Source: an uncultured Gammaproteobacteria bacterium (lineage in GTDB: Bacteria > Patescibacteriota > Patescibacteriia > Magasanikbacterales > GWA2-37-8). Taken from it: a stretch of DNA of 64,000 bases. The notes under the pieces were generated by a model that did not search any database, was not told where the DNA came from, and was given only the letters and a program-made list of their open reading frames with translations. Below, one piece after another: positions 3,261 to 52,198 of the stretch. Made by a program: the position numbers and the translations under genes. Location of the stretch: the NCBI GenBank assembly GCA_964496095.1, contig CAZBWU010000003.1, forward strand, positions 65,901 to 129,900. Reading direction: 5' to 3'. The first letter of the stretch is position 1. The number at the start of each line of letters is the position of its first letter.

Positions 3261-3373
3261 TGTCATTCGAGCAAAGTGTAGAATCTCTGCCCATACAACC
3301 GCCATTCGCTCGACTTGACCGAAGACAACAACGAAAAACCGGACAGAGATCCTTCATTTCATTCAGGATGACA
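3261..3373. repeat. MITE-like palindromic element, family A
   Basis: tgtcattcgagcaaagtgtagaatctctgcc...ggacagagatccttc...caggatgacaa. It lies directly upstream of smpB and explains the spurious N-terminal extension of ORF 3260..3823. Confidence 0.7.
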
Positions 3374-3381
3374 AACAATAC

Positions 3382-3823
3382 TATGCCCCTTGCCCAAAAC
3401 AAAAAAGCCGAGTTTGAATATGAAATCCTAGAGAAATACGAGGCTGGTTTGGTATTATCAGGACAAGAGGTAAAATCCGCTAAACTTGGACAAATAAACT
3501 TAAAAGGCTCATACATAACTTTCCACGGTACCAATGCTTCCGTGTTAAATATGCATATTAATAAATACAAAGCTGTGGGTCCCCTACCTGACTATGACCC
3601 GACCCAATCCCGCCGAGTTCTTCTCCATAAAAAACAAATCGCCTATTTAAGGGCAAAATCTATGGAAAAGGGCTTGACAATTGTGCCTTTGCGAGTGTAT
3701 ACTAAGGGACGACTTCTAAAAATAGAAGTGGCTGTAGCTAGAGGAAAAAAACTTTACGACAAAAGAGAAACTCTAAAACAAAGAGATTCTAAAAGAGAAA
3801 TGGCTAGAGAAAGAAAGAATTAA
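3382..3823 (+). CDS. smpB: SsrA-binding protein SmpB
   Basis: MPLAQNKKAEFEYEILEKYEAGLVLSGQEVKS...LLHKKQIAYLRAK...EVAVARGKKLYDKRE. Typical SmpB length and motifs, and it is followed immediately by a tmRNA. Confidence 0.85.
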
Positions 3824-3832
3824 ATTATTTTT

Positions 3833-3911
3833 TGTCATTCTGAACAAAGTGAAGAATCCCTGTCTAAATTACCGAACGGACAGAGATCCTTCGTTACACT
3901 CAGGATGACAA
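3833..3911. repeat. MITE-like palindromic element, family A
   Basis: tgtcattctgaacaaagtgaagaatccctgtc...gacagagatccttcgttacactcaggatgacaa, between smpB and ssrA. Confidence 0.75.
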
Positions 3912-3926
3912 ACGTTTTTTTACAAA

Positions 3927-4323: not shown

Positions 4324-4429
4324 GAGAAATCCGGATTTACGGATAACTCAGATATACAGATGATAACGTCTGGACAAACGGTTCAAATCCGTAAATCTGG
4401 ATTATCTGCATATCCGGATAAATCTTAAT

Positions 4430-4975
4430 ATGAGAATATCCCACAAAAAACATAAACCAGAGCCAAAAAAAGTATTTTTCTATAACCAAGGTATTACTGT
4501 ACCAGAAGTTATGGTCTTGGCAAATGACGGCACAAATTTAGGTATCACAAAAACTCCCGACGCCTTAAAAATGGCTCGCGAGCAAGAACTTGATTTGGTT
4601 CTTATCAATCCTAAATCTTCTCCGCCAGTTGCTAAAATTATCGATTTTGGACAATTCCGTTACCAGCAAGAAAAAGAAGAGCGTCTCAAACAAGCTCACG
4701 CCCATGTGACAGAAGTAAAAGGTATCAGATTGTCCTTACGCATCTCTCCTCATGATATGGAGATAAGACAAAACCAAGCTATGCAATTTCTAAATGAAGG
4801 CGATAAAGTAAAAGTAGAAATAATTCTCAAAGGTAGAGAACAACAACAAAGACCAATGGCTGCAGCAGTGGTAGAAAAATTTGTCAGTAATGTTAATGCC
4901 ATTTTACCGGTACGCAAAGACCAAGAAGTAGAATTCCAATTTAACAAAGTGACAGCAATAATCGCTAAAAAGTAA
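4430..4975 (+). CDS. infC: translation initiation factor IF-3
   Basis: ...VMVLANDGTNLGI...ALKMAREQELDLVLINPKSSPPVAKIIDFGQFRYQQEK...GDKVKVEIILKGRE.... Conserved infC-rpmI-rplT order. Exact start uncertain, since IF-3 often uses a non-ATG start. Confidence 0.85.
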   Translation: MRISHKKHKPEPKKVFFYNQGITVPEVMVLANDGTNLGITKTPDALKMAREQELDLVLINPKSSPPVAKIIDFGQFRYQQEKEERLKQAHAHVTEVKGIRLSLRISPHDMEIRQNQAMQFLNEGDKVKVEIILKGREQQQRPMAAAVVEKFVSNVNAILPVRKDQEVEFQFNKVTAIIAKK

Positions 4976-5301: not shown

Positions 5302-5649
5302 ATGACACGTATCAAAGGTGGTTTACTCCACGCTAAACGCAGACGAGGCATTCTCAAACACACAAAAGGTTTCCGCTGGGGAAGAAAATCAAAAATCAAG
5401 TTAGCTAAACCAGCTAAAATGAAAGCTGGTCAATATGCTTTCAATGACCGCAAGATCAAGAAGCGCACCAGCCGAGGTTTGTGGAATATAAAAATCAACG
5501 CTGCTGTTCGCAACTTCCAAATGAGCTACAGCAAATTCATTGACGCTCTCAAGAAAAACAATATTGCTCTTGATAGAAAAGTCTTAGCCGACTTGGCTCA
5601 GAATCACGAAGCTATATTTGCTAAAATAGTTGATGCAGTGAAGAAATAA
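5302..5649 (+). CDS. rplT: 50S ribosomal protein L20
   Basis: MTRIKGGLLHAKRRRGILKHTKGF...KAGQYAFNDRKIKKR...LWNIKINAAVRN..SYSKFI matches L20. Confidence 0.9.
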   Translation: MTRIKGGLLHAKRRRGILKHTKGFRWGRKSKIKLAKPAKMKAGQYAFNDRKIKKRTSRGLWNIKINAAVRNFQMSYSKFIDALKKNNIALDRKVLADLAQNHEAIFAKIVDAVKK

Positions 5650-5856: not shown

Positions 5857-6129
5857 TTACAAATTTTTATAAATATCATGCTTACCAATAGAGATAAACA
5901 AAATATCGCCATTTTTTTGGCGCTCAAAAATAATACGATAATTACCAGTAATAGAAATTGACCATAACTCACTTAACTTTCCATGCAAGGCATGAAGGCG
6001 AAGGGATGGATGTAAAGGATTTTCTTTAAAAATTTTTTCTTTTCTCGCCGCTAAAACAAAGAGATCTTTTGGTAATTTTTTTAACTCCACCACAAATTTA
6101 GAAGAATACAAAATACTTGTGATAATCAT
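5857..6129 (-). CDS. type II toxin, RelE/ParE family
   Basis: 90 aa, ...HPSLRLHALHGKLSELWSISITGNYRIIF.... Its start overlaps the upstream small gene by 4 nt. Confidence 0.6.
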   Translation of the reverse strand: MIITSILYSSKFVVELKKLPKDLFVLAARKEKIFKENPLHPSLRLHALHGKLSELWSISITGNYRIIFERQKNGDILFISIGKHDIYKNL

Positions 6130-6353
6130 ACCAGATCAGCCAAAGAATTTGCTTTGATTGACTTGCCGGCTACATACTCCTTACGTGCGTCTCGCGCTGT
6201 TTTTAAAAGCTCAGTTTCAGAAATAAGCTCCTCATCGGCTTTAAACAAATACTTCACATAGGAGCTAACGGAATTATAGCCCCGTTTCTTCGCAAAGATT
6301 TTGATTTGTTTAAGATCGGAAGTAGGTAATGATAAGCTAGTAATTTGACGCAT
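6126..6353 (-). CDS. antitoxin of type II TA pair (RelB/ParD-like)
   Basis: 75 aa acidic/basic small protein immediately upstream of and overlapping the RelE-like gene. Classic TA gene order. Confidence 0.5.
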   Translation of the reverse strand: MRQITSLSLPTSDLKQIKIFAKKRGYNSVSSYVKYLFKADEELISETELLKTARDARKEYVAGKSIKANSLADLV

Positions 6354-7547: not shown

Positions 7548-8042
7548 ATAAACTTATGAGTTAACTTATACCAGCAAGTATACCAAAAAGCCCATAATTT
7601 ACAACATAACCTAGACATCACAAAAACTCCTATCATAAACATCTTTCAACCTTGCTTTGTCCATAACATGTAGTTCTAAAATCGCTCGGGTAAGCGCAAC
7701 ATTCAACAAATCTCGCTGCACCTTTTTAATTTCTGGGATTATCCAATATACAAACAACAAAAAAATTGGCTAACATAAGCCAACTAATTTTAGCGAGGAG
7801 TATGGGACGAAGTGGGAACCTGGGTGGCTAGGGTTAGCCAAATTTAATGATAAAGGATTGACAAAAGCTTAATTATATGATATTATTATTTGTTCTATTA
7901 GTTATTAACTAATAGACTTTGTTCCTTATACATCATGGTAGAAGATACTTTTTAAAGCAGGTACATCTTGCTTTACAGAACATCTTCTACCACACAACAA
8001 CAGGTGAGCGTCAATGACGCCACACCAAGGGAGAGAGATTCT

Positions 8043-8555
8043 ATGAAGAAGGAAAGTCTCTGGCTACTGCCGCTCGCGATCGCCATCGTCTTCTGGATCA
8101 CGGCGATGATCGTCGCTATCCACAACGATTATGTGGGACGGGCCATCCTCTACGGCACGATCTTCGTCCTCAACTTGATCATGCTCGTCGAGTACATGAT
8201 CAAGGTGGAGGTTGCGAAGCTGACCAAGAAGTACGACATCGGCTCTTCGTTCATCATGGTTCCCGTGACGAAGGCCGACACGGCCAGCTGCCCCGAGCAC
8301 GCCGCACAGATCAGCTACGATCGATACACGATTACGTTCCAGGGCTGTCTGGAGCACGGTGCCGATCTAGCGCTCTTCGTGAATGGCAATGCCAAGGAAG
8401 TGGCCGAGCACGCGCGCACCCTCACGGACGCAGGCTCCTTCCTGGATCAGGTCGCGAAGCGACAGCAGATCCCGACGGAGATCGTCGCGAGCCTGCGCGC
8501 CAAGCTGCCGGAGCTGTTCCCCCAGCAACCAGACCCCGACGGCGGCGTACACTGA
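8043..8555 (+). CDS. hypothetical membrane protein encoded by a GC-rich (foreign-composition) cassette
   Basis: Start MKKESLWLL follows aagggagagagattct (SD-like). Two TM helices, then a soluble domain. Codons are G/C-ending throughout, unlike all flanking genes. Opposite-strand ORFs here are treated as GC artefacts. Confidence 0.5.
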   Translation: MKKESLWLLPLAIAIVFWITAMIVAIHNDYVGRAILYGTIFVLNLIMLVEYMIKVEVAKLTKKYDIGSSFIMVPVTKADTASCPEHAAQISYDRYTITFQGCLEHGADLALFVNGNAKEVAEHARTLTDAGSFLDQVAKRQQIPTEIVASLRAKLPELFPQQPDPDGGVH

Positions 8556-8676
8556 ACAACTCGAAGCTCCCAACAACATTCCTATGGAGTAAGGATCAGG
8601 AGGCCTTCACGTAGCTTTATATATAATATAGATTTTGTATACATAGCTACGAAGGTCTCTGAAAAAAATTTATTTA

Positions 8677-8711
8677 AAAAACAACCTTTCTAACAGAAGG
8701 TTGTTTTTTGT
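8677..8711 (+). terminator. rho-independent terminator
   Basis: aaaaacaacctttctaacagaaggttgttttttg, a perfect stem plus a T-run downstream of the GC-rich gene. Confidence 0.6.
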
Positions 8712-8716
8712 TTAAC

Positions 8717-8790
8717 CTGACGGATGTGGTGACCGTCCGTCTACGCAAATTATGGCCATTTTTATATAATTTTTGGTCACAACGTGGACA
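8717..8790. repeat. island boundary element, copy 1 (tgtggtgacYgtccg ... tatggccat ... tttggtcacaaNNtggNcacaatt)
   Basis: About 70% identical to 13948..14030 and to a shorter copy at 10491..10568. Contains a tandem TGGNCACAA direct repeat. Confidence 0.55.
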
Positions 8791-9097
8791 CAATTTTATA
8801 TGTCTAGCCAGTACAAAAAAATAGCGACTGAATTTACAGAATTATCTATATATGATATAGTTATTTTGTCTTTGACAATTGAGCCTAACAGCCGCAGCAC
8901 AGGGTGCAATCCCCTGGGTAATAGTTGGAGTATTTTTCTCTACTGCTCTGAATTATTCATCTTATTTTGAATTTATTATGGAAAATAAAAAAACTTTAAA
9001 TTTAAGAAAACTATCCTTTAAAATGAACTTAAAATTAAGTACCAAAATAATTACCGTGGCAGGCCAACTGCTGTAAGGCTAAATTGTTAAGATTAAA

Positions 9098-9160: not shown

Positions 9161-9508
9161 TTACAGCAAACTTTCAATACTTACATGCTTTGCTTTAAAA
9201 CTATAAGCCTTTTCTTCTGGTATTGCTCTGTTTGCAGCAACTACCCGAAACATGTCTCTTATCTCATTATTTGTGTTAATAAAAGAAACTTCTTTCTTAT
9301 TCCAAGTTTTTCTCTGTAAATCTTCTTTTAAACGAAGCATGGCGTGAGCTGCAGAACGAGAAATAAATTCTACATCCTCAAAATCTAAATTAACCGTTTT
9401 TGAATCGGTTTTTAAAATTAGCTTTTCTAAATTCTCTATTAAATCTCGAGAGCTTATAATAGGGGCTAAAATGCTAATTAATTTTAAGTTTGCAATTGTT
9501 TCTTTCAT
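9161..9508 (-). CDS. STAS-like small protein (DUF4325-type)
   Basis: 115 aa with ...VNLDFEDVEFISRSAAHAML..., the hallmark of the STAS-like DUF4325 family. Immediately downstream of a GHKL ATPase gene. Confidence 0.5.
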   Translation of the reverse strand: MKETIANLKLISILAPIISSRDLIENLEKLILKTDSKTVNLDFEDVEFISRSAAHAMLRLKEDLQRKTWNKKEVSFINTNNEIRDMFRVVAANRAIPEEKAYSFKAKHVSIESLL

Positions 9509-9536
9509 ATGTATTTATTATACCTGACCAATCATT

Positions 9537-10388
9537 TTATTCCAAATATGGACTGATGTCAATAGTACCTTTTGGCTTCATAATTCTATAAGCGATAATA
9601 ACTCCATGCCATGAAAAATCTCCTAATTTTACTATTTTTTCTTCTTTATTATCCGCAATCAAAGCAGATGATCCGGAAATAATCATAAAAGATCCTCCCA
9701 GAGCTTCACAGACCACTCTTTTTGAAGTCCGAACTCCATAACCTCTTTCCTTATCTTTTTTAGTAGAATGTCCATCCATTGCTTGAATTATAGCCTCATC
9801 ATCAGAAATTTTTAGATTCTTCTCGTCAGCATATGTTGCCGCCAAACCTTTTCCTGTATCTACAATACACATATCTAGATACTCTTTATTTGGATAATAC
9901 TGCCCAAAGATATACCCTTTACTCTCTTTACTATGCTCAAAAATATTAGTTACTAACTCACTTATAGGATAATAGATAGCATTTCGTGCACCTAGAGTTG
10001 CCCCTACTACTTTATAAATCATCTGACTAAATAAAGACTCTAGTCTTTCTCTTTCTGCACCTGCTTCACGCCGTAAAACACTAATGGGAACATAGGTTTT
10101 TCCTTGCTGAACTTCTGCTTCCAAATCAGACACACTATTTACACCATCAGGAAATTTTATCGTATTGGCATATGATTTTGTGGCGTGATTTTCGTTATTC
10201 ACTGTACTGTTAGTTTTATGGATATAAGCACTAATTGGAAGAGAAATTAGAGGGCACAAAAATTTAATCTGAGACACGTCAAATTCAATTTTCTCACCCC
10301 ATTCAATACCTTTAAGAGTATTATAAAGTGAAACAAAAGAGCTAATTAATTTATCATTTTTAGGCGCAGGTACTATGATTTTTCTCAT
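9537..10388 (-). CDS. histidine-kinase-like (GHKL) ATPase
   Basis: N-box ...ISELVTNIFEHS..., G1 ...VDTGKG..., G2 ...ERGYGVRT.... No receiver, HisKA or DNA-binding domain. Confidence 0.55.
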   Translation of the reverse strand: MRKIIVPAPKNDKLISSFVSLYNTLKGIEWGEKIEFDVSQIKFLCPLISLPISAYIHKTNSTVNNENHATKSYANTIKFPDGVNSVSDLEAEVQQGKTYVPISVLRREAGAERERLESLFSQMIYKVVGATLGARNAIYYPISELVTNIFEHSKESKGYIFGQYYPNKEYLDMCIVDTGKGLAATYADEKNLKISDDEAIIQAMDGHSTKKDKERGYGVRTSKRVVCEALGGSFMIISGSSALIADNKEEKIVKLGDFSWHGVIIAYRIMKPKGTIDISPYLE

Positions 10389-10490: not shown

Positions 10491-10568
10491 CAGGTATCGA
10501 GGCTGTCTGAATATCAAAAATATGGCCATAATAGGCAAGAAGTTTGATCACAAAGTGGGCACAAGTTT
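10491..10568. repeat. island boundary element, copy 2 (shorter)
   Basis: gaggctgtctgaatatcaaaaatatggccataataggcaagaagtttgatcacaaagtgggcacaagtttt aligns with copies at 8717 and 13948. Confidence 0.45.
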
Positions 10569-13947: not shown

Positions 13948-14030
13948 AGGCTGTGGTGACTGTCCGAAGGTGTGAAATATCGCCATAATCCCCTCTTTTT
14001 TTGGTCACAAAATGGTCACAATTTACAAAA
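13948..14030. repeat. island boundary element, copy 3
   Basis: ggctgtggtgactgtccg...aaatatcgccataat...tttttggtcacaaaatggtcacaattt. About 105 bp from the 3' end of tRNA-Asp. Confidence 0.55.
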
Positions 14031-14135
14031 TGTGACCGCCGTACCAAGTTTAAAATAACAAAAGTTGTAGGCTCGATTTCCGCTCTACTAAAACAAAAAA
14101 ACACCATTGTGTAGTGTAATATTTGTTTCTAGCTA

Positions 14136-14212
14136 TGGCGGGTCGGACGGGACTCGAACCCGCAACTTCTGCCGTGACAGGGCAGTGCTCTAACCAGTTG
14201 AACTACCGACCC
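14136..14212 (-). tRNA. tRNA-Asp (GTC), CCA encoded
   Basis: Reverse complement GGGTCGGTAGTTCAACTGGTTAGAGCACTGCCCTGTCACGGCAGAAGTTGCGGGTTCGAGTCCCGTCCGACCCGCCA. Cloverleaf fits with anticodon loop CUGUCAC, and it closely resembles E. coli tRNA-Asp. Confidence 0.9.
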
Positions 14213-14283
14213 AAATTGTCTATTTACAATAAGAAAATTATACAAAAAAACTTGGATTATGTCAACTGGCTGAATTTGTAACA

Positions 14284-14313
14284 TTGACAAAATGAGCGTT
14301 TTAGAAATATACT
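14284..14313 (+). promoter_or_regulatory. sigma70-like promoter (TTGACA-N18-TATACT)
   Basis: ttgacaaaatgagcgttttagaaatatact, 25 nt upstream of the ATG at 14338. Confidence 0.5.
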
Positions 14314-14337
14314 CTAGCATATGAAAGAGTCCCAGCC

Positions 14338-14595
14338 ATGATGAAAAAAGAGGATGCCCGAAAGTGGCTACTGGTCACAGTGAAGCTCGCGGGTGGACCG
14401 TCAAGGTGCACCAAGAGAACAGTACTAAACGGTAAAGTACTGGCAACCATCAAGGGCTTCGCCTACAACAATTTCGGTGACGAACTCACCCTCGAGGAGT
14501 CGACTACATTCGGAAAGCTCCTCAAAATCATAAAGGGAAACATCTCCAGAATGAAGCCCTACAGGGCAGTTATTCTCCAGAAAAAGGAGTCGTAA
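14338..14595 (+). CDS. hypothetical small protein (85 aa), first gene of a GC-rich two-gene cassette
   Basis: G/C-rich codon usage unlike the host genes. Promoter upstream. Its stop overlaps the next start (TAAATG), suggesting coupled translation. Confidence 0.45.
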   Translation: MMKKEDARKWLLVTVKLAGGPSRCTKRTVLNGKVLATIKGFAYNNFGDELTLEESTTFGKLLKIIKGNISRMKPYRAVILQKKES

Positions 14596-14898
14596 ATGCC
14601 AGGCCCAATCTGGATCATGATCCTCGCGATCCCCAACTGCTTCTTCTCGCCACCAGTCAAGATGGATCTGGGAAACCTGACATTCCTGGTCGGTTCCAGA
14701 TTCAACGTGATGGAAGATCACATTGACCCTGTCGGCAACCTGAAGTTCAATCTTTCCTGGTTGCTCAAGGGCCTGGGCAGTGACGCAGAGAAAACACTGC
14801 GCGAACTGCTCGACACCTGGGAAGTGGACATGGATCAAATCACGATCACGATCCCATGGGGATGCTACGAACCAGCGACCCGAGACAAGAACGACTAG
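14596..14898 (+). CDS. hypothetical small protein (100 aa), second gene of the GC-rich cassette
   Basis: Same composition as the first gene. Followed at about 15064 by a strong terminator. A 165 aa antisense ORF (14425..14922) is considered a GC artefact. Confidence 0.45.
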   Translation: MPGPIWIMILAIPNCFFSPPVKMDLGNLTFLVGSRFNVMEDHIDPVGNLKFNLSWLLKGLGSDAEKTLRELLDTWEVDMDQITITIPWGCYEPATRDKND

Positions 14899-15063
14899 AT
14901 CAGAGAGAAGGCCTGACAGCAACGGTGCTCTGCAGAGGAGGTCAACCTCAAGACAAGGGACATCAACCTCGTTCGCAACACCTGATTTGTTTCTAAAAAA
15001 TTGGAAGCAGATCAGGAGGGCGACCGCGAACGAGATTTGTTTGTTCCTAAACTTTCTTAAAAT

Positions 15064-15098
15064 AAAAACCCCGCTCTATAAAGCGGGGTTTTTATTTT
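15064..15098. terminator. bidirectional rho-independent terminator
   Basis: aaaaaccccgctctataaagcggggtttttatttt lies between the convergent GC-rich cassette and the 15108..15437 gene. Confidence 0.7.
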
Positions 15099-15107
15099 AT
15101 AAATTTT

Positions 15108-15437
15108 CTACTTAAGACTACTAGTCACCTGATCCTCCAACTGTTGCGCATCTTCCGCATACTGCCAATTACCCATCATTCCTCCCCTGTACCCAGCATC
15201 ATAAGTATCTCCGCGATACATCATCATTTGGTGTGGATAATTTCTTCCATGACCATACCCGAAACCACCAAGATAAGCTCTTAACATTCCGAGCTTGTAA
15301 CCCATGCAAAAAACTATCATAAGTACCACCGCGCCCAGAAGCCAACAAAGCCAAGATTTATGACCCCAAACCATGCTATGTCCTCCACAACAACTTCCAC
15401 CTTCTTTACTACCGTTTCCCATTTTGTCGTCGCACAT
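15108..15437 (-). CDS. small Gly/Cys/His/Met-rich membrane protein, hypothetical
   Basis: N-terminus ...GGSCCGGHSMVWGH..., one TM, then a tail rich in G, Y, M and H. Downstream of ppsA on the same strand. Confidence 0.4.
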   Translation of the reverse strand: MCDDKMGNGSKEGGSCCGGHSMVWGHKSWLCWLLGAVVLMIVFCMGYKLGMLRAYLGGFGYGHGRNYPHQMMMYRGDTYDAGYRGGMMGNWQYAEDAQQLEDQVTSSLK

Positions 15438-15460: not shown

Positions 15461-18439
15461 TTAATTTATTTTAAAATCTTTTATGCTTTGAAATATTTCA
15501 TCAAACACATCAATAGAACCTTTAAATACAATAACATATTTTGATTGTTCGGAGCCATTTGGAAAAAGAATTACGACCCCTGTTGCACCTTCATCTCCAC
15601 TATCTCGAGGAGGATATTCAAATTTTTTTATTTGAAATCCATTCCAAACAGACGAACTTGTAATATACTCTGTTTTTCCAAGACTAAAAGATTCTTTAGA
15701 AACAGAAAATTCGGAGAAAAATCCAGTATTGCTTTCACCTTGACTAGTAAAATAAACCCGATTTTTAGACCTTTTTACACTTAACGCATAGGGATAGGAA
15801 ATTGTAAAACTAGGCAAGTCATCACCGTTTTCCACATAGGTAGAAGCTGAATTTGCTTTTTGTTGGGCTAAAGCTAAATCCATTTCTCTCTTTGCATCAG
15901 ACTTTGCCAAAGCCACCTGATTTGCCACCTCTATCTTTACCTCCTCCGCCGACATTTTATTTGCATTTACATTCTGGCAAGTATAACCACCCAATATTGT
16001 CGTGAGTCCCAATACCCCAAAAATCAAAAGCATCTTAGAAGCCACATTCATCTTGAAACTGCTGGTTGGTTTGGCAGCGACTTTTTTCTCCATACTGGCA
16101 ATCCGCTCACGAGTTTTGATTACTGTGTCCGGATTGAGAGAAATACTATCTATTCCCTCTTGCACCAAAAATTCAGCAAACTCAGGATAATCACTTGGCG
16201 CTTGACCACAGATACCAACTTTACGCTTATTTTCATGCGCAACTTTTATTACTTGTCTAATCAAAGTTTTTACCGCTTCGTTTTTTTCATCATAAACATG
16301 ACTCACAAGAGCCGAATCTCTATCTACACCGAGTGTAAGCTGGGTCAAATCATTTGAGCCAATACTAAACCCATCAAAAATTTCACAGAATTCTTTGGCT
16401 AAAATTACATTCGCCGGAATCTCACACATCACATAGACTTTGAGACCGTCTTTGCCTCGCTCCAGGCCAAATTCTTTCATCACTGCCAAAACTTTTTTAC
16501 CTTCTTCTATTGTCCGACAAAATGGCACCATCACTATCAAATTTTTCATCCCCCACTCATTGCGGACTTTTTTGATAGCTTCACATTCTAGTTTAAATCC
16601 AGCTTTATATTTTGGATCATAATAACGAGATGCGCCTCTCCAACCAATCATTGGATTTTCTTCTTTTGGTTCGTAGGCTTGCCCACCGATTAACGTTGCA
16701 TATTCATTGGTCTTAAAATCTGACAAACGGACAATCACATCGTTAGGATGAAAAGCAGAAGTGATAAAGGCAATACCCTCGGCGAGCTTGTCTACACAGT
16801 ACTTGGATTTATCTTTATAATCGCTTGTGAGCGCGTCTATCTTGGCTTTAACATCTTTGGGCTGATCTTTATAATTGACTAGCGCCAAGGGGTGAATTTT
16901 AACAAAATTTGTAAAAATAAATTCTTCGCGAGCTAGACCGACACCGTCATTTGGTAAATTAGCGAGCGTGAAAGCATTGCTCGGATCACCCACATTCATC
17001 ATGATCTTGGTGCGAGTATCAGGGACATTTTTTATTTCAGTACGAATAACTTCAAATGGTAATAGGCCTTTGTACACATAACCAGTTTCGCCCTCGGCAC
17101 AAGACACAGTAACCTCATCTCCGGTTTTGATAGTTTGTCTGGCTTTGGCAGCGCCCACAATAGCCGGTGTGCCTAGTTCACGACTGACGATAGCGGCGTG
17201 TGAAGTCTTACCACCTTGTTCGGTGACAATAGCGCTAGCAATACGCATGATAGGCTCCCAGTCAGGATCAGTAATACGAGTAATCAAAACTTCTCCAGGT
17301 TTGAACTGTTTCATTTGCTTGGGCGAGTTGATAACTCTAGCTCTGCCCTGGCCAATTTTTTGACCAACACTTGAACCAGTGAGCAATACTTTTCCTTTTT
17401 CTTTTTGTTTTATTTGATATTGCTCTATGGTATTTATTATTTTTGATTGAACAGTTTCAGATCTAGCTTGTACAATAAATAGCTGCCCGCTAATTCCGTC
17501 TTTGGCCCATTCTATATCCATCGGATGACCATAGTGTTCTTCTATCAATACGCCCCATTTGGATAATTGCAAAACTTCGTCATCGGTCAAACAATAATTT
17601 CTTTGATCTGATGGTTTTACTTTTTCTTGCTTAGTACCAATTTTTCCGTAAATTAACTTTACTTCTTTACTTCCCAAGCGCCTACTAATAATCGACTTAA
17701 AATCATTTTTAATTCCATCTTTAAAAACATAAAACTGATCCGGAGTCACCCGGCCTTTGACCACATACTCACCAAGTCCATAAGAAGCATTGATAAGGAC
17801 TACGCCTTTGAAGCCTGATTCGGTATCTAGAGTAAACATTACACCACTAGTACCCATATCAGATCGCACCATTTCTTGTACACCCACTGAAAGAGCAATC
17901 GCTGTATGCTCATAGCCTTTATCTTCGCGATACGAGATAGCTCGGTCGGTAAATAGCGAAGCAATACATTTTTTACTTGCCAGCAACAATTCTTTTTCAC
18001 CACAAACATTGAGATAAGTTTCTTGCTGTCCAGCAAAACTAGCATCAGGCAAATCTTCGGCCGTGGCGCTAGAGCGCACAGCCACATCTAAATTAGCTTT
18101 CTTAGAAGATTTACAAAGCGCTTTATAAGCAATACCTATTTCTTTTTCTATTTGTTTAGGAAATTTGGAATCAAGAATCATTTTGCGAATTTTGCTTCCT
18201 ACTACTGCCAAATCATGCACATTTTTTTTATCTAAGCCTCTTAGAGTATCTTTTATTTTTTTATCTAAATTATTTTCTTTTATAAAGTCCCAATAAACAT
18301 CGGCGGTCAACGCAAAACCATTGGGTACTTTCATACCCTTAGAAGTAAGTTTGGCATACATTTCACCAAGGGAAGCGTTTTTACCTCCAACCGAAGGAAT
18401 GTCTTTGATGGTTAGGTCTTTAAACCAGCTTATATACAT
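15461..18439 (-). CDS. ppsA: phosphoenolpyruvate synthase (pyruvate, water dikinase) with an approximately 196 aa C-terminal extension
   Basis: N-terminal ...SVGGKNASLGEMYAKLT... and a PEP-utilising TIM-barrel C-domain are collinear with PpsA for about 790 aa. The frame then continues without a stop into MNVASKMLLIFGVLGLTTILGGYTCQ..., a signal/lipobox-like segment plus about 170 aa. Confidence 0.8.
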   Translation of the reverse strand: MYISWFKDLTIKDIPSVGGKNASLGEMYAKLTSKGMKVPNGFALTADVYWDFIKENNLDKKIKDTLRGLDKKNVHDLAVVGSKIRKMILDSKFPKQIEKEIGIAYKALCKSSKKANLDVAVRSSATAEDLPDASFAGQQETYLNVCGEKELLLASKKCIASLFTDRAISYREDKGYEHTAIALSVGVQEMVRSDMGTSGVMFTLDTESGFKGVVLINASYGLGEYVVKGRVTPDQFYVFKDGIKNDFKSIISRRLGSKEVKLIYGKIGTKQEKVKPSDQRNYCLTDDEVLQLSKWGVLIEEHYGHPMDIEWAKDGISGQLFIVQARSETVQSKIINTIEQYQIKQKEKGKVLLTGSSVGQKIGQGRARVINSPKQMKQFKPGEVLITRITDPDWEPIMRIASAIVTEQGGKTSHAAIVSRELGTPAIVGAAKARQTIKTGDEVTVSCAEGETGYVYKGLLPFEVIRTEIKNVPDTRTKIMMNVGDPSNAFTLANLPNDGVGLAREEFIFTNFVKIHPLALVNYKDQPKDVKAKIDALTSDYKDKSKYCVDKLAEGIAFITSAFHPNDVIVRLSDFKTNEYATLIGGQAYEPKEENPMIGWRGASRYYDPKYKAGFKLECEAIKKVRNEWGMKNLIVMVPFCRTIEEGKKVLAVMKEFGLERGKDGLKVYVMCEIPANVILAKEFCEIFDGFSIGSNDLTQLTLGVDRDSALVSHVYDEKNEAVKTLIRQVIKVAHENKRKVGICGQAPSDYPEFAEFLVQEGIDSISLNPDTVIKTRERIASMEKKVAAKPTSSFKMNVASKMLLIFGVLGLTTILGGYTCQNVNANKMSAEEVKIEVANQVALAKSDAKREMDLALAQQKANSASTYVENGDDLPSFTISYPYALSVKRSKNRVYFTSQGESNTGFFSEFSVSKESFSLGKTEYITSSSVWNGFQIKKFEYPPRDSGDEGATGVVILFPNGSEQSKYVIVFKGSIDVFDEIFQSIKDFKIN

Positions 18440-23578: not shown

Positions 23579-23599
23579 AAGACAAAGTTTAACTTTGGC

Positions 23600-23670
23600 T
23601 GTCATCCTGAATGCAACGAAGGATCCCTTCCACGGTTTAAGGATTCTTCGGCGTTGCCTCAGAACGACAA
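23600..23670. repeat. MITE-like palindromic element, family A
   Basis: tgtcatcctgaatgcaacgaaggatcccttcc...ggattcttcggcgttgcctcagaacgacaa. Confidence 0.7.
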
Positions 23671-27354: not shown

Positions 27355-28284
27355 CTAATCCATCCACTTCTTAATCTTAAATACCGAGAGCATCAGCATC
27401 GCGCCGATAAAAATAATAATAGAAATAATTGCAAATCCAAAAGGATTATCTATAAATGGTGTTCCCCCAGCATGAATGGCAAAAATAGTAGCTACGAGTG
27501 TCAAAGGAAAAGTGATTACCGAGATAATAGTAAGAGTCTTCATAATCTCATTCATCCGCAAACCAACCACCGACTCATTGGTTTCATCGAGAGCATCGGC
27601 GCTTTCTTTTTGGCTTTCTAGGGTATGCCAAATTTCAGCTACATGATCACGAGCGGTGTTTATATACAGTTGATAAGATTGTAGATCTAATTCCCTACCA
27701 CCACGACTGATTAAATGATCTAAAACTGTTTTATGACCTTGCATGGCTCGGCGGAAATTTACTACATTCATTTTCAATCTCAAAATCTCTTCGGCCATTT
27801 TTCTATCCGGAATTTTGACAAACAAAATTTTATCAATAGAATTCGTGTCGTCGTTCACATGTAACAAAATCGGAAAGATGGACTCCAACATACGATTGAG
27901 GAGTTCAAAAAATATATGAGCCGAAGTGCCATTAAAATATTTTTCTCTAAGCTCCGATTTCTTTTGGCAACTATTAAAAAACTCTTCTATAACAGCCAAA
28001 CTGCCATTATGTACGGTAATTAAACTACTGCTATTTAAGAAAAAATCCACTTCCGCAAAGCCTAAACGCCTAGTTTTACGGTCAAAAACCGGAAAATGTA
28101 AGACCAAAAAATAATAATTGTCGCGTTTGACAAACTTAGGACGCTGGAACGAAGGCAGGCTTTCTGAAATTTCTTGATCAGTAAATTGAAACCTTTTCTG
28201 CAAAGCGCGCAAAACCTTTTCTTCAGATTGGGTGACATTAACCCAGAGCAAACCATTATTTTGAATTTCGTTTAAATTTTTCAT
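27355..28284 (-). CDS. CorA-like divalent cation transporter family protein (GMN motif not conserved)
   Basis: Cytoplasmic N-domain plus two C-terminal TMs. The sequence before the last TM is ...TIFAIHAGGTPF instead of YGMNF. Start taken at MKNLNEI, because the longer ORF runs into a MITE. Confidence 0.5.
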   Translation of the reverse strand: MKNLNEIQNNGLLWVNVTQSEEKVLRALQKRFQFTDQEISESLPSFQRPKFVKRDNYYFLVLHFPVFDRKTRRLGFAEVDFFLNSSSLITVHNGSLAVIEEFFNSCQKKSELREKYFNGTSAHIFFELLNRMLESIFPILLHVNDDTNSIDKILFVKIPDRKMAEEILRLKMNVVNFRRAMQGHKTVLDHLISRGGRELDLQSYQLYINTARDHVAEIWHTLESQKESADALDETNESVVGLRMNEIMKTLTIISVITFPLTLVATIFAIHAGGTPFIDNPFGFAIISIIIFIGAMLMLSVFKIKKWMD

Positions 28285-28293
28285 AATTCTTTT

Positions 28294-28448
28294 TGTCATC
28301 CTGAACGTAGTGAAGAATCTCTGTCGGCTGTTCGTTGTCATCCCCGACCTGATCGGGGATCCAGCGTACAATTAAATTGCCTGGATTCCCGCTGTTGCGG
28401 GAATGACAATTGTTTGGGCAGGGATTCTTCGCCTTGCTCAGAATGACA
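28294..28448. repeat. nested MITE cluster: family A element carrying a family B element inside
   Basis: Outer tgtcatcctgaacgtagtgaagaatctctgtc...gggattcttcgccttgctcagaatgaca. Inner ttgtcatccccgacctgatcggggatccag...ctggattcccgctgttgcgggaatgacaa. Confidence 0.7.
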
Positions 28449-28536
28449 GTTGATAAAATCCTAAATAACAATGTAAATACATTATAGCACATTGTTGAAG
28501 AAGCTAAAATATGTTATCATACTTTATATCCATCTT

Positions 28537-34146: not shown

Positions 34147-34155
34147 TCTTTCGCC

Positions 34156-34267
34156 TGTCATTCTGAACGAAGTGAAGAATCTCTGTCCGTACAATGTCAT
34201 TCCCGCCAAAGCGGGAATCCAGACAATTCGAACGTACCCTGGATTCCCAATCAAGTTGGGAATGACA
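34156..34267. repeat. MITE composite: family A half-element plus complete family B element, abutting tRNA-Gln
   Basis: tgtcattctgaacgaagtgaagaatctctgtccg then tgtcattcccgccaaagcgggaatccag...ctggattcccaatcaagttgggaatgacaa. Confidence 0.7.
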
Positions 34268-34274
34268 AAAACAT

Positions 34275-52123: not shown

Positions 52124-52198
52124 TGTCATTCCCAACTTAATTGGGAATCCAGTGTCGAATTAAATTGTCTGGATTCCCGCTTTTGGCGGGAATGACAA
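52124..52198. repeat. MITE-like palindromic element, family B
   Basis: tgtcattcccaacttaattgggaatccagtgtcgaattaaattgtctggattcccgcttttggcgggaatgacaa. Confidence 0.7.

Follow-up and report, generated by a model that had tools for sequence, protein, structure and literature searches.

Phage morons are autonomous promoter-gene-terminator units of deviant composition, as found in lambdoid prophages. The small two-gene unit considered here, which lies in a window of 64,000 nucleotides (the whole stretch of DNA that was analyzed), resembles them in its own sigma-70 promoter, its short ORFs, its factor-independent terminator and its odd composition, as well as in a presence that differs among close relatives. 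Unlike morons, this cassette is not part of a prophage (no PHROG matches, no phage genes nearby and no phage DNA match were found) and its slot is chromosomal, with tRNA-Asp on one side and an ECF sigma/orf109 gene pair on the other. Sister cassettes of this slot kept their deviant GC3 over saturated divergence and the units shared a conserved terminator module, which again differs from morons.

Integron cassettes also consist of tandem short ORFs, each followed by an imperfect palindrome of 60-130 nt, with an ORF content unrelated between strains; and the hairpin of the slot resembles attC sites in that its basal stem is conserved, its internal loop asymmetric and its apex variable. In contrast to integrons, every slot unit displayed its own promoter, no integrase or attI was found in the surveyed neighborhood, and homology breakpoints fitted a replacement through flanking homology. 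The RYYYAAC/GTTRRRY pair of attC was lacking, the aligned hairpin ends being C(C/T)CGTTCGC ... GCGAACG(A/G)G. G-U pairs, the U-tract and a strand-specific model score argue for a transcript-level terminator rather than attC.

Type II toxin-antitoxin operons are comparable by their two abutting small genes, own promoter, more conserved second product and location in variable DNA. They differ from the present unit, which was homologous to none of the toxin or antitoxin families, displayed a distribution that is not mobile or multi-locus, and is replaced by single-gene cassettes at the same place in relatives. With Rho-independent terminators, attenuators and 3'-UTR elements (including 3'-UTR-derived small RNAs), the unit shares a stable hairpin with a U-rich tract at its 3' end, a single-stranded motif (GGUGCUCUG) upstream, and conservation independent of the coding sequence. 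Its hairpin is unusually long for a Rho-independent terminator (at least 26 bp with internal loops), and, unlike in those elements, the stem is invariant between genomes and up to three copies occur in one locus.

The features of the unit and its immediate surroundings are the following (window coordinates):

14136..14212, minus strand: tRNA-Asp (GTC), from ARAGORN (Rfam tRNA 66.8 bits); context, outside the cassette
14237..14265, minus strand: divergent sigma-70-type tRNA-Asp promoter TTGACA-17-TATAAT, 12/12 matches
14284..14313, plus strand: cassette promoter TTGACA-N18-TATACT, 11/12 consensus matches
14338..14595, plus strand: ORF1, 85 aa, basic orphan protein, from the ORF list
14425..14922, minus strand: antisense ORF, 165 aa, rejected as a gene
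14584..14589, plus strand: Shine-Dalgarno AAGGAG, 6 nt ahead of the ORF2 ATG, read from the sequence
14596..14898, plus strand: ORF2, 100 aa, orphan with a hydrophobic N-terminus, from the ORF list
14918..15057, plus strand: structured RNA element, the putative "cassette terminator", from fold, covariation and conservation
14924-14932, plus strand: motif GGTGCTCTG, within the element
14937-14949, plus strand: small hairpin, within the element
14967-14976/15026-15035, plus strand: long hairpin, basal stem, within the element
14981-14996/15001-15016, plus strand: long hairpin, upper stem, within the element
15036-15047, plus strand: U-rich tail, within the element
15058..15099, both strands: palindromic bidirectional intrinsic terminator, 18-bp stem with 6 GC pairs and a T-run
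15108..15437, minus strand: orf109, small Cys/Gly-rich membrane protein; right conserved flank, context

A preliminary description of this DNA had announced a consensus promoter, a strong terminator, a distance of about 125 bp to the tRNA-Asp of the opposite strand and two coupled ORFs of high-GC codon usage. Promoter and terminator were recovered as listed above and the start of ORF1 lies 126 nt from tRNA-Asp. The sizes of the two ORFs stood as well, while the claimed overlap of stop and start did not: TAA and ATG simply abut, and ORF1 and ORF2 share a frame in the window. GC3 amounted to 0.63 for ORF1 and 0.72 for ORF2 versus 0.34 +/- 0.09 for 48 long ORFs of the window, and T3 to 0.09 (the ribosomal protein gene rplT displayed a GC3 of 0.41 and a T3 of 0.28). 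The composition, which might have turned out ordinary, was clearly deviant: segment 14340-14990 had a GC content of 51.3 % versus 38.2 +/- 3.6 % across windows of 650 nt, a z of 3.6 that puts it in the top 0.5 %. ORF2 is followed by a 3' UTR of 160 nt and then by the strong bidirectional terminator, which is common to the cassette and to the convergent orf109 and whose equivalent ends the sigma/orf109 pair in relatives L083 and L105. This 3' UTR, with its conserved and structured segment 14918-15057, had been missed in the preliminary description. Neighboring genes in the window were tRNA-Asp, thioredoxin/DsbD genes, orf109 and ppsA.

The slot recurred in relatives (Patescibacteria, Magasanikbacteria-like), with tRNA-Asp and an ECF sigma gene at its borders and unrelated GC-rich small ORFs, mostly single, inside. 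Each of their units displayed its own promoter and a copy of the hairpin (~70-130 nt) with a U-tract at its end, and up to three such ORF-plus-hairpin units were arrayed before the sigma gene. The same tRNA-Asp flanked the slot in L002, L083, L084 and L105, and each held different ORFs, so that the variation at this tRNA envisaged in the preliminary description was encountered. L002 carried a GAF-domain gene, L083 a different 98-aa ORF followed by the hairpin and the sigma gene, L084 two other GC-rich units, and L105 three ORF-plus-hairpin units, each with its own promoter, before the sigma gene. In L090 the order was hairpin, ORF176, hairpin and sigma gene. The ECF sigma gene was absent in the window and in sibling strain L001; orf109 (nine homologues, dN/dS 0.08-0.15) was convergent with it in relatives. 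The pair ORF1-ORF2 was absent from L002, L083 and L105 and was found at this one locus only, in two close strains.

The tRNA-Asp promoter region was conserved with L083 and L105. Homology to L083 ran from the tRNA through the -35 box of the cassette promoter (14213-14292, 89 %) and ended there; the -10 box therefore lies in the variable segment, whereas the -35 box is still part of the conserved left flank. The breakpoints with L083 fell at window positions 14292 and 14924. Constant landmarks bound the slot: the promoter region of tRNA-Asp at one end, and the hairpin, the ECF sigma gene and orf109 at the other. Integrative elements usually insert at the 3' end of tRNA genes. The cassette sits at the opposite, promoter-bearing (5') end of tRNA-Asp, upstream of the promoter, and the earlier idea of a tRNA hotspot is weakened by this position and by these landmarks.

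Kinship between the ORFs of the window and the cassette ORFs of relatives was not detectable, and the ORF families of relatives were mutually unrelated. A resemblance noticed by eye across cassette ORFs ("LLxAI...YWE") held only inside family A of L105 and L090, and a HxxxCxxC motif of zinc anti-sigma type in ORF177 of L105 received no Pfam support. Cassette genes of relatives displayed GC3 values of 0.5-0.7 across saturated divergence versus 0.2-0.3 in their neighbors. Its persistence across saturated dS indicates that high GC3 is a stable trait of the genes of the slot, not a fading donor signature.

Nowhere in the unit were conservation and structure stronger than in segment 14918-15057, a ~130-nt element and the one part in common with relatives. 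Its local fold z-score was -6.55 for the plus strand versus -2.45 for the minus strand, while scores outside 14920-15060 were modest and alike on both strands. Only one out of 123 positions differed from L001, and identity to L083 reached 94 % between unrelated flanks. Across the hairpin alignment, 95.7 % of cells were paired and six pairs displayed compensatory changes (none of 500 shuffles scored as high; slid alignments paired 34-52 %). The covariance model gave 125 bits on the sense versus 38.6 bits on the antisense strand, all hairpin instances had fold z-scores of -5 to -8.7, and each was followed by a T-run. On the evidence of covariation in aligned sequences, the hairpin is an RNA-level structure of the plus strand.

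Like a Rho-independent terminator, the hairpin is a stable stem-loop that closes the unit and leads, on the transcribed strand, into a U-rich tract. In the window this U-tract is interrupted (AUUUGUUUGUU; ATTTGTTTGTT) and a canonical terminator follows 20 nt further on (15058-15099); with such an interruption and a second terminator, termination at the hairpin is something that we infer rather than observe. Rfam searches of the window and L105, at gathering and at permissive thresholds, returned only generic terminator-like matches below threshold. Orthologous copies of the hairpin were more alike than paralogous ones, which points to purifying selection rather than concerted evolution. The hairpin evolved far slower than neighboring genes, and its stem sequence was invariant across genomes whose neighboring proteins were only 50-60 % identical; this invariance suggests that the hairpin is recognized by some factor. 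Motif GGUGCUCUG, located directly upstream, was conserved and single-stranded. The best reading of the element is that of a previously undescribed, clade-specific terminator module.

On balance, these comparisons lean toward a strain-specific accessory operon housed in a cassette slot, at a hypervariable locus of a Patescibacteria (Magasanikbacteria-like) genome. Placed between co-oriented transcription units, the hairpin would serve as intrinsic terminator or as insulator. Cassettes may be exchanged by homologous recombination, to judge by breakpoints in three genomes only, the left homology arm being the region of the tRNA-Asp promoter as far as the -35 box and the right arm the hairpin element. 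A recent exchange would also explain why the 5' half of ORF2 is near-identical in two otherwise diverged strains. The products of ORF1 and ORF2 would be a co-expressed pair, in which ORF2, with its hydrophobic N-terminus and predicted beta-rich core, is probably envelope-bound and ORF1 may be its small basic cytoplasmic partner.

The genomes of Patescibacteria are tiny, and these bacteria live attached to host cells; to our knowledge, little is known about how their accessory gene content varies. The locus would be a compact slot in which unrelated, self-transcribed small genes, all with a codon usage that sets them apart from the remaining genome, are swapped between strains, and whose units are separated and closed by a sequence-conserved RNA hairpin. 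Should this hairpin be a protein-recognized insulator, a recombination site or a regulatory RNA ahead of the ECF sigma gene, it would represent a new class of RNA/DNA element for this radiation; if it is more than a terminator, it would provide a handle for finding accessory genes in metagenomes.

The preliminary description had proposed a toxin-antitoxin, immunity or anti-defense pair, while stating that neither product was recognizable. The second statement was borne out. ORF1 and ORF2 gave no significant match in Pfam, PHROGs, PADLOC, NCBIfam or PDB sequences, and the only database match to ORF1 was one identical contig of 784 nt. Exhaustive HMMER searches with ORF2 returned only its L001 counterpart P0001 and two weak matches to repeat proteins. 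Apart from the sibling strain, no homologue was detected among 5.8 billion clustered proteins and 1.84 billion representatives, and scans of genome, viral and metagenome contigs with the ORF2 protein found nothing; the homologues of the cassette thus amounted to the one in L001 and the identical contig. Structure models, which had been suggested as a check, were obtained with AlphaFold2 at low confidence (pLDDT 58 for ORF2 and 44 for ORF1) and gave no Foldseek match with E < 1 against PDB. Residues 20-100 of ORF2 displayed 30 % identity to single repeats of P0012, a 30-repeat Big_9 protein (pairwise E = 3e-4). The similarity of ORF2 to the bacterial Ig-like domain Big_9 (PF17963) stayed weak (profile-profile probability 3.7 %, no Pfam match). 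By these searches both proteins are true orphans, a mainly negative yet useful result.

A type II (or membrane-acting) toxin-antitoxin system, or another two-component conflict module, is rather unlikely, the database and profile searches above having given it no support. ORF1 would then be a labile, fast-evolving neutralizer, ORF2 the conserved toxin and the consensus promoter autoregulated. A couple of small genes that abut, are flanked by a promoter and a terminator of their own and lie in a strain-variable island would suit such a module, as would the hydrophobic N-terminus of ORF2 and its higher conservation (89 % identity to P0001 versus 68 % for ORF1), and such modules do occur in this genome: a genuine RelE/HigB-like pair lies elsewhere in the window, at 5857-6353. 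The conservation of ORF2 is however of nucleotide level, not of protein level. Neither product belonged to a family in the searches above, including exhaustive HMMER, and the ORF1 model displayed no helix-turn-helix or ribbon-helix-helix, which at its pLDDT is uninformative. The mostly single, unrelated ORFs of relatives indicate that the locus as such does not call for a gene pair, and a pair restricted to one locus in two close strains is unlike mobile toxin-antitoxin families.

Alternatively, the GC-rich stretch might be a structured non-coding RNA, or an mRNA in which part of ORF2 acts mainly as RNA, the ORFs being fortuitous products of a GC-rich sequence with few stop codons. This is improbable, and plus-strand ORF1 and ORF2 are most likely coding, as judged from GC periodicity, the AAGGAG of ORF2 and the location of the sole indel. 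Three-base GC periodicity was significant for both ORFs jointly (p = 1e-8) and absent from the 3' UTR; GC by codon position was 0.44/0.37/0.63 in ORF1 (p = 2e-3) and 0.52/0.37/0.72 in ORF2 (p = 2e-6). The sense frame was purine-rich at position 1 and T-poor at position 3, and a codon model, for which cassette genes from relatives had served as training set, gave its best score to the plus frame. The single indel that separates the window from L001 in 560 nt, an extra A in L001, falls exactly at the junction of the ORFs, so that both lengths are kept, as is the perfect AAGGAG (with a spacing of 7 nt in L001). ORF1 was of equal length and free of indels between the two strains, and its dN/dS (0.41) was the lowest among the frames tested. 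Analogous slot ORFs of relatives were clearly coding (dN/dS 0.09-0.10 at saturated dS).

In favor of an RNA, the full 781-nt transcript folded with a z-score of -7.56, protein homologues were limited to one sibling strain, structure models were of low confidence, and ORF2 and the 3' UTR were conserved at all codon positions. The 16 substitutions of ORF2 were spread over codon positions without bias (4/7/5; dN/dS 1.1), and protein-level selection on ORF2 is therefore not demonstrated. Synonymous divergence from L001 was 0.047 in ORF2 versus 0.79 in the adjacent orf109, and the divergence profile displayed two cold patches, 14613-14760 and 14963-15062. Against an RNA, fold z-scores were, as noted, modest and strand-symmetric outside the hairpin element, and no Rfam match was obtained. 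The 51 substitutions of ORF1 kept 19 predicted pairs and broke 23, the opposite strand faring no worse; a conserved RNA structure across the whole ORFs was rejected, as pair-preserving changes were not in excess and strand asymmetry was lacking. As a mechanism for coupling the two genes, an occlusion of the ORF2 Shine-Dalgarno by a hairpin pairing it with the end of ORF1 was predicted, but the fold z-scores were not significant and the folds differed between the two strains. Read-through or recoding of the TAA, which would fuse ORF1 and ORF2, was ruled out by the L001 insertion, which puts them in different frames.

No less improbable is that the unit was recently acquired by horizontal transfer and inserted beside the tRNA gene, its GC-rich source being a phage moron, a plasmid or an integrative element. 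The foreign-like GC3 and T3 of the cassette, its autonomous, moron-like promoter-plus-terminator organization and its absence from L002, L083 and L105 would agree with such an origin. It is opposed by the lack of any homologue beyond the sibling strain in the protein collections named above, by the position on the 5' side of the tRNA gene and by the other cassette families of the slot, which hold a high GC3 across saturated synonymous divergence. Moreover, the cassette DNA had no match in phage and plasmid collections or viral contigs, and neither att duplications nor phage genes were found near the cassette. A phage-type integrase was encountered in one relative, ~2.5 kb away and past another gene; none was present among the scanned ORFs at 4.4-13.6 kb or beside the cassette. 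A literature search combining Magasanikbacteria and sigma factor returned no papers.

Still less probable is that the hairpin serves as the recognition site of an integron-like cassette-capture system or, in a variant of this proposal, that the element gives rise to a conserved 3'-UTR-derived regulatory RNA with GGUGCUCUG as its seed. In the capture system, a recombinase encoded elsewhere would insert or exchange promoter-bearing small-gene cassettes at the structured site ahead of the ECF sigma gene, and the persistently GC3-rich orphan genes would be a dedicated reservoir from which functions are exchanged. No target of the putative seed was found within the 64-kb window.

That the real gene is instead the 165-aa minus-strand ORF (14425-14922) is effectively refuted: it is the longest ORF of the region and its GC by codon position (0.69/0.35/0.48) would not disqualify it as a gene, but the 1-nt indel of L001 splits it into two frames, it lies downstream of the bidirectional terminator with no promoter or Shine-Dalgarno found in the sequence and no family matches, the conserved 3' element is plus-strand specific, and the codon model placed it below the plus frame. 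It is codon-aligned antisense to ORF1 and ORF2, a frame in which long shadow ORFs are to be expected opposite GC3-rich genes, and is such a shadow. Besides the cassette, the 38 %-GC window displayed one other GC-rich island, at 7750-8600.

The segment at 14284-15099, between tRNA-Asp and orf109 (a gene for a small Cys/Gly-rich membrane protein), was shown here to be an autonomous transcription unit in a slot of strain-differing, promoter-bearing and GC-rich small genes, each unit ending in its own copy of a hairpin with U-tract that is conserved in sequence and supported by covariation. Its architecture makes this cassette a variant of the 'moron-like' accessory units already known. The promoter, the two ORFs, the terminator and tRNA-Asp announced in the preliminary description were all recovered (14136-15099).

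Features of the cassette and its left flank
14136-14212, minus strand: tRNA-Asp(GTC), with its own divergent promoter (12/12 matches)
14284-14313, plus strand: sigma-70 type promoter TTGACA-N18-TATACT (11/12 matches)
14338-14595, plus strand: ORF1, 85 aa
14596-14898, plus strand: ORF2, 100 aa
15058-15099: palindromic, very strong terminator (18-bp stem and T-run)

Stop and start codons of the two ORFs had been described as overlapping; instead, TAA abuts ATG and both ORFs lie in one frame. AAGGAG precedes the ATG of ORF2 by 6 nt. The abutting codons, together with a predicted pairing of this Shine-Dalgarno sequence with the end of ORF1, point to a possible coupling of ORF2 translation to ORF1 translation, but the predicted folds did not reach significance. 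The terminator stood as described, and a 160-nt 3' UTR separating it from ORF2 has to be added. The window was AT-rich (38.2 % GC) while positions 14340-14990 reached 51.3 % (z = 3.6, top 0.5 % among 650-nt windows). A comparable island occurs just once more in the 64 kb (7750-8600). GC3 was 0.63 in ORF1 and 0.72 in ORF2 against 0.34 +/- 0.09 in long ORFs, which bears out the high-GC codon usage and deviant composition noted earlier. Third codon positions displayed T at a frequency of 0.09 in the cassette, against 0.26-0.40 in host genes (0.28 in the ribosomal protein gene rplT).

GC displayed a three-base periodicity in ORF1 (p = 2e-3) and ORF2 (p = 2e-6; joint p = 1e-8), which was absent from the 3' UTR. 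First positions of the plus frame were purine-rich and third positions T-poor, and this frame scored best of all six under a codon model trained on clearly coding cassette genes from relatives. The only related cassette was encountered on L001, a 1,061-nt JGI contig syntenic with the downstream gene, where both ORFs are kept and where the sole indel in 560 nt adds one A at the very junction of TAA and ATG. This indel puts the ORFs in different frames, ruling out read-through of TAA into a joint product. It also splits the frame of the 165-aa antisense ORF (14425-14922, minus strand), which was rejected as a gene and is a codon-aligned shadow of the GC3-rich sense frames. The coding periodicity, which the preliminary description had considered might reside in the antisense frame, was thus assigned to the plus strand by the codon-based test, and the two small ORFs are probably translated. 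Readings of the cassette as an antisense gene or as a non-coding RNA were each contradicted by several tests.

Searches of Pfam, PHROGs, PADLOC, NCBIfam and PDB sequences returned nothing significant for ORF1, ORF2 or the antisense ORF. Structure prediction, proposed earlier as a check, yielded poor AlphaFold2 models (pLDDT 58 and 44) for which Foldseek returned no match in PDB. Among 5.8 billion clustered proteins, ORF2 matched only its homologue P0001 from L001, while the sole match of ORF1 was its identical copy on a contig of 784 nt in GCA_013565595.1, a highly fragmented assembly at NCBI (>740,000 contigs). This contig (JACCDK010740566.1) was 100 % identical to window positions 14029-14812, which indicates that the same strain occurs in a dataset unrelated to this one, possibly as a contaminant or as associated DNA. 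When 1.84 billion representatives were searched exhaustively with an HMMER profile, two weak matches to giant repeat proteins were added. Residues 20-100 of ORF2 were 30 % identical to one of these, a 30-repeat Big_9 Ig-like protein, and since the profile-profile probability was just 3.7 % this resemblance is a lead and not a finding. Scans of genomes, viruses and metagenomes, as well as searches of phage and plasmid DNA, gave no match. Both proteins are orphans. It may be weakly guessed that ORF2 is envelope-directed and ORF1 its small basic partner. The toxin-antitoxin module initially suggested is a less probable reading, supported by nothing specific. A conventional type II toxin-antitoxin pair, which the cassette does not resemble, is located at 5857-6353 (minus strand), where a RelE/HigB/ParE-like toxin gene (90 aa) overlaps a 75-aa ORF upstream.

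The nearest matches of the neighbouring PpsA were ~65 % identical, one being a Magasanikbacteria MAG, which places the genome among Patescibacteria. In the ancestral order shown by the orf109 homologues and their contigs, ppsA - orf109 faces a convergent ECF sigma-70 gene. Comparison at the tRNA-Asp locus, as the preliminary description had advised, uncovered a content between the sigma gene and tRNA-Asp that differs from genome to genome.

Slot content in related genomes
L002: GAF-domain gene
L083: consensus promoter, unrelated GC-rich 98-aa ORF, element, sigma gene
L085/L086: orthologue of the L083 98-aa ORF, element, sigma gene
L090: element, promoter, 176-aa ORF, element, sigma gene
L105 (389-kb contig, oriented as the window): tRNA-Asp, then ORF99, ORF90 and ORF177 with an element after each, then sigma gene
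L084: a pair of other GC-rich ORF units that share a distinct 3' motif

ORF90, ORF177 and the sigma gene of L105 each displayed their own promoter-like site. The window and L001 carried ORF1 and ORF2 in the slot and lacked the sigma gene, of which no homologue was found throughout the 64 kb. Slot ORF families were unrelated to one another. Families A (L105 ORF177 and L090 ORF176) and B (L083 ORF98 and L085 ORF99) were under strong purifying selection (dN/dS 0.10 and 0.09, both at saturated dS) and kept a GC3 of 0.5-0.7 beside sigma genes at 0.2-0.3. Codon usage here follows a stable local regime, for which recent transfer is no explanation; several tests contradicted the view of the cassette as recent foreign DNA. 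Similarity between the window and L083 ended just past the -35 box (14292) and restarted at 14924; these breakpoints delimit an exchanged segment with -10 box, 5' UTR, ORFs and ~25 nt past the stop codon. Cassettes would be swapped by homologous recombination between conserved flanks. Differing MITE-like palindromic insertions were observed between tRNA-Asp and its promoter in L083 (~4390-4480, minus strand) and L105 (1527-1585, plus strand). The 5' end of the tRNA (CCGACCCAA) was duplicated in L083, and in L002 a 25-nt stretch (3775-3799) duplicates the 5' half of tRNA-Asp.

Parts of the conserved element (14918-15057)
Part 1: motif GGTGCTCTG
Part 2: small hairpin, optional
Part 3: long hairpin with basal stem C(C/T)CGTTCGC / GCGAACG(A/G)G, 4-nt bulge A(N)CA, upper stem CCTGATTT... 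/ ...AAATCAGG with variable apex, and optional 3' internal loop with GGAGG
Part 4: U-rich tract

All instances of the element folded alike (z-scores -5 to -8.7), the window copy having a local score of -6.55 for its plus strand against -2.45 for its minus strand. Pairing was found in 95.7 % of cells among nine aligned sequences, with compensatory double changes in six pairs (12 cells); none of 500 column shuffles reached the observed values and slid controls paired at 34-52 %. Frequent G-U pairs mark the element as a plus-strand RNA (or top-strand) structure. A covariance model scored 125 bits sense against 38.6 bits antisense in the window and detected single copies there and in each of L001, L083, L085/L086 and L107, two copies in L090 and three in L105. 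A pattern scan of JGI metagenomes (23 loci) returned only those same copies as true matches; the element was not found in viral contigs and had no match in Rfam. Orthologous copies were 87 % and 79 % identical, against 68-73 % between copies within one genome, which shows that copies are old and individually maintained, not homogenised. The L001 and L083 copies shared 99 % and 94 % identity with the window copy (adjacent orf109 DNA: 88 % and 79 %).

In most relatives the element lies directly 5' of the ECF sigma gene promoter. It is very improbable that the element acts as a regulatory RNA or as a site for integron-like capture. The hairpin would rather act as an intrinsic terminator or insulator between co-oriented units, and the invariant sequence of its stem suggests that some factor recognises it, beyond mere folding. 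This terminator-type element and the persistent GC3-rich regime of slot genes are seemingly undescribed and, as far as sampled, restricted to a narrow clade within Patescibacteria.

Between the window and L001, orf109 displayed a dS of 0.79 and a dN/dS of 0.08. ORF1 (dS 0.44; dN/dS 0.41, the lowest among frames tested) behaves as a weakly constrained protein. ORF2 displayed a dS of 0.047 and a dN/dS of 1.1, with 16 substitutions (4/7/5 by codon position), its synonymous divergence being lower than those of ORF1 (p = 3e-5) and orf109 (p = 3e-8). Profiles in 50-nt bins uncovered two cold patches, 14613-14760 (three substitutions) and 14963-15062 (one), separated by a hot spacer (14863-14962). 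With two sequences, the patch in ORF2 may reflect either recent recombinational exchange or nucleotide-level constraint; for that in the element, further genomes settle the cause as maintenance of its copies.

Several other features of the window were recorded. The PEP synthase-like gene (15461-18439, minus strand; 992 aa) displayed a ~200-aa C-terminal extension with a hydrophobic segment; matches stop near residue 785 in most relatives, the extension being common only to the closest ones, L002 and L105. A STAS-domain protein adjoins a HATPase_c protein at 9161-10388 (minus strand), in a part of the genome from which the neighbouring ECF sigma gene has been lost, and they resemble a partner-switching pair of anti-sigma antagonist and anti-sigma kinase. 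The direct-repeat motif TTTTTGGTCACAAnnTGGnCACAATTT occurred three times (8770-8796, 10541-10567 and 13998-14024), once directly downstream of tRNA-Asp, and could be a regulator binding site. A family of REP-like palindromes (TGTCATTCTGAAC...GAAGAATC, plus a ~60-nt unit linked to it) was dispersed in both orientations, several copies adjoining tmRNA and tRNA-Gln genes.

Positions of the REP-like repeats
3340-3376
3829-3913
23596-23631
28282-28449
34152-34268
52124-52185

The second GC-rich island (7750-8600, up to 57 % GC) looks like an autonomous GC3-rich cassette of the same kind as the ORF1-ORF2 unit. Its ORF (7968-8555, plus strand; probable start ATG 8043) encodes an orphan of ~170 aa with two predicted hydrophobic helices and no Pfam match, GC by codon position being 0.57/0.39/0.79. 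An extended -10 promoter (7858-7886, 11/12) and a palindromic terminator (near 8676-8712) were present. Just 5' of this promoter, a 46-nt motif with GGGACGAAGTGGGAAC (7795-7840) is followed on the minus strand by a terminator (7785..7764). The GGGACGAAGTGGGAAC core occurred twice in L084 as reverse complement (5390-5405 and 5976-5991), each copy 3' of its own GC-rich cassette ORF and ahead of a terminator, and may represent a second type of conserved cassette-end motif.
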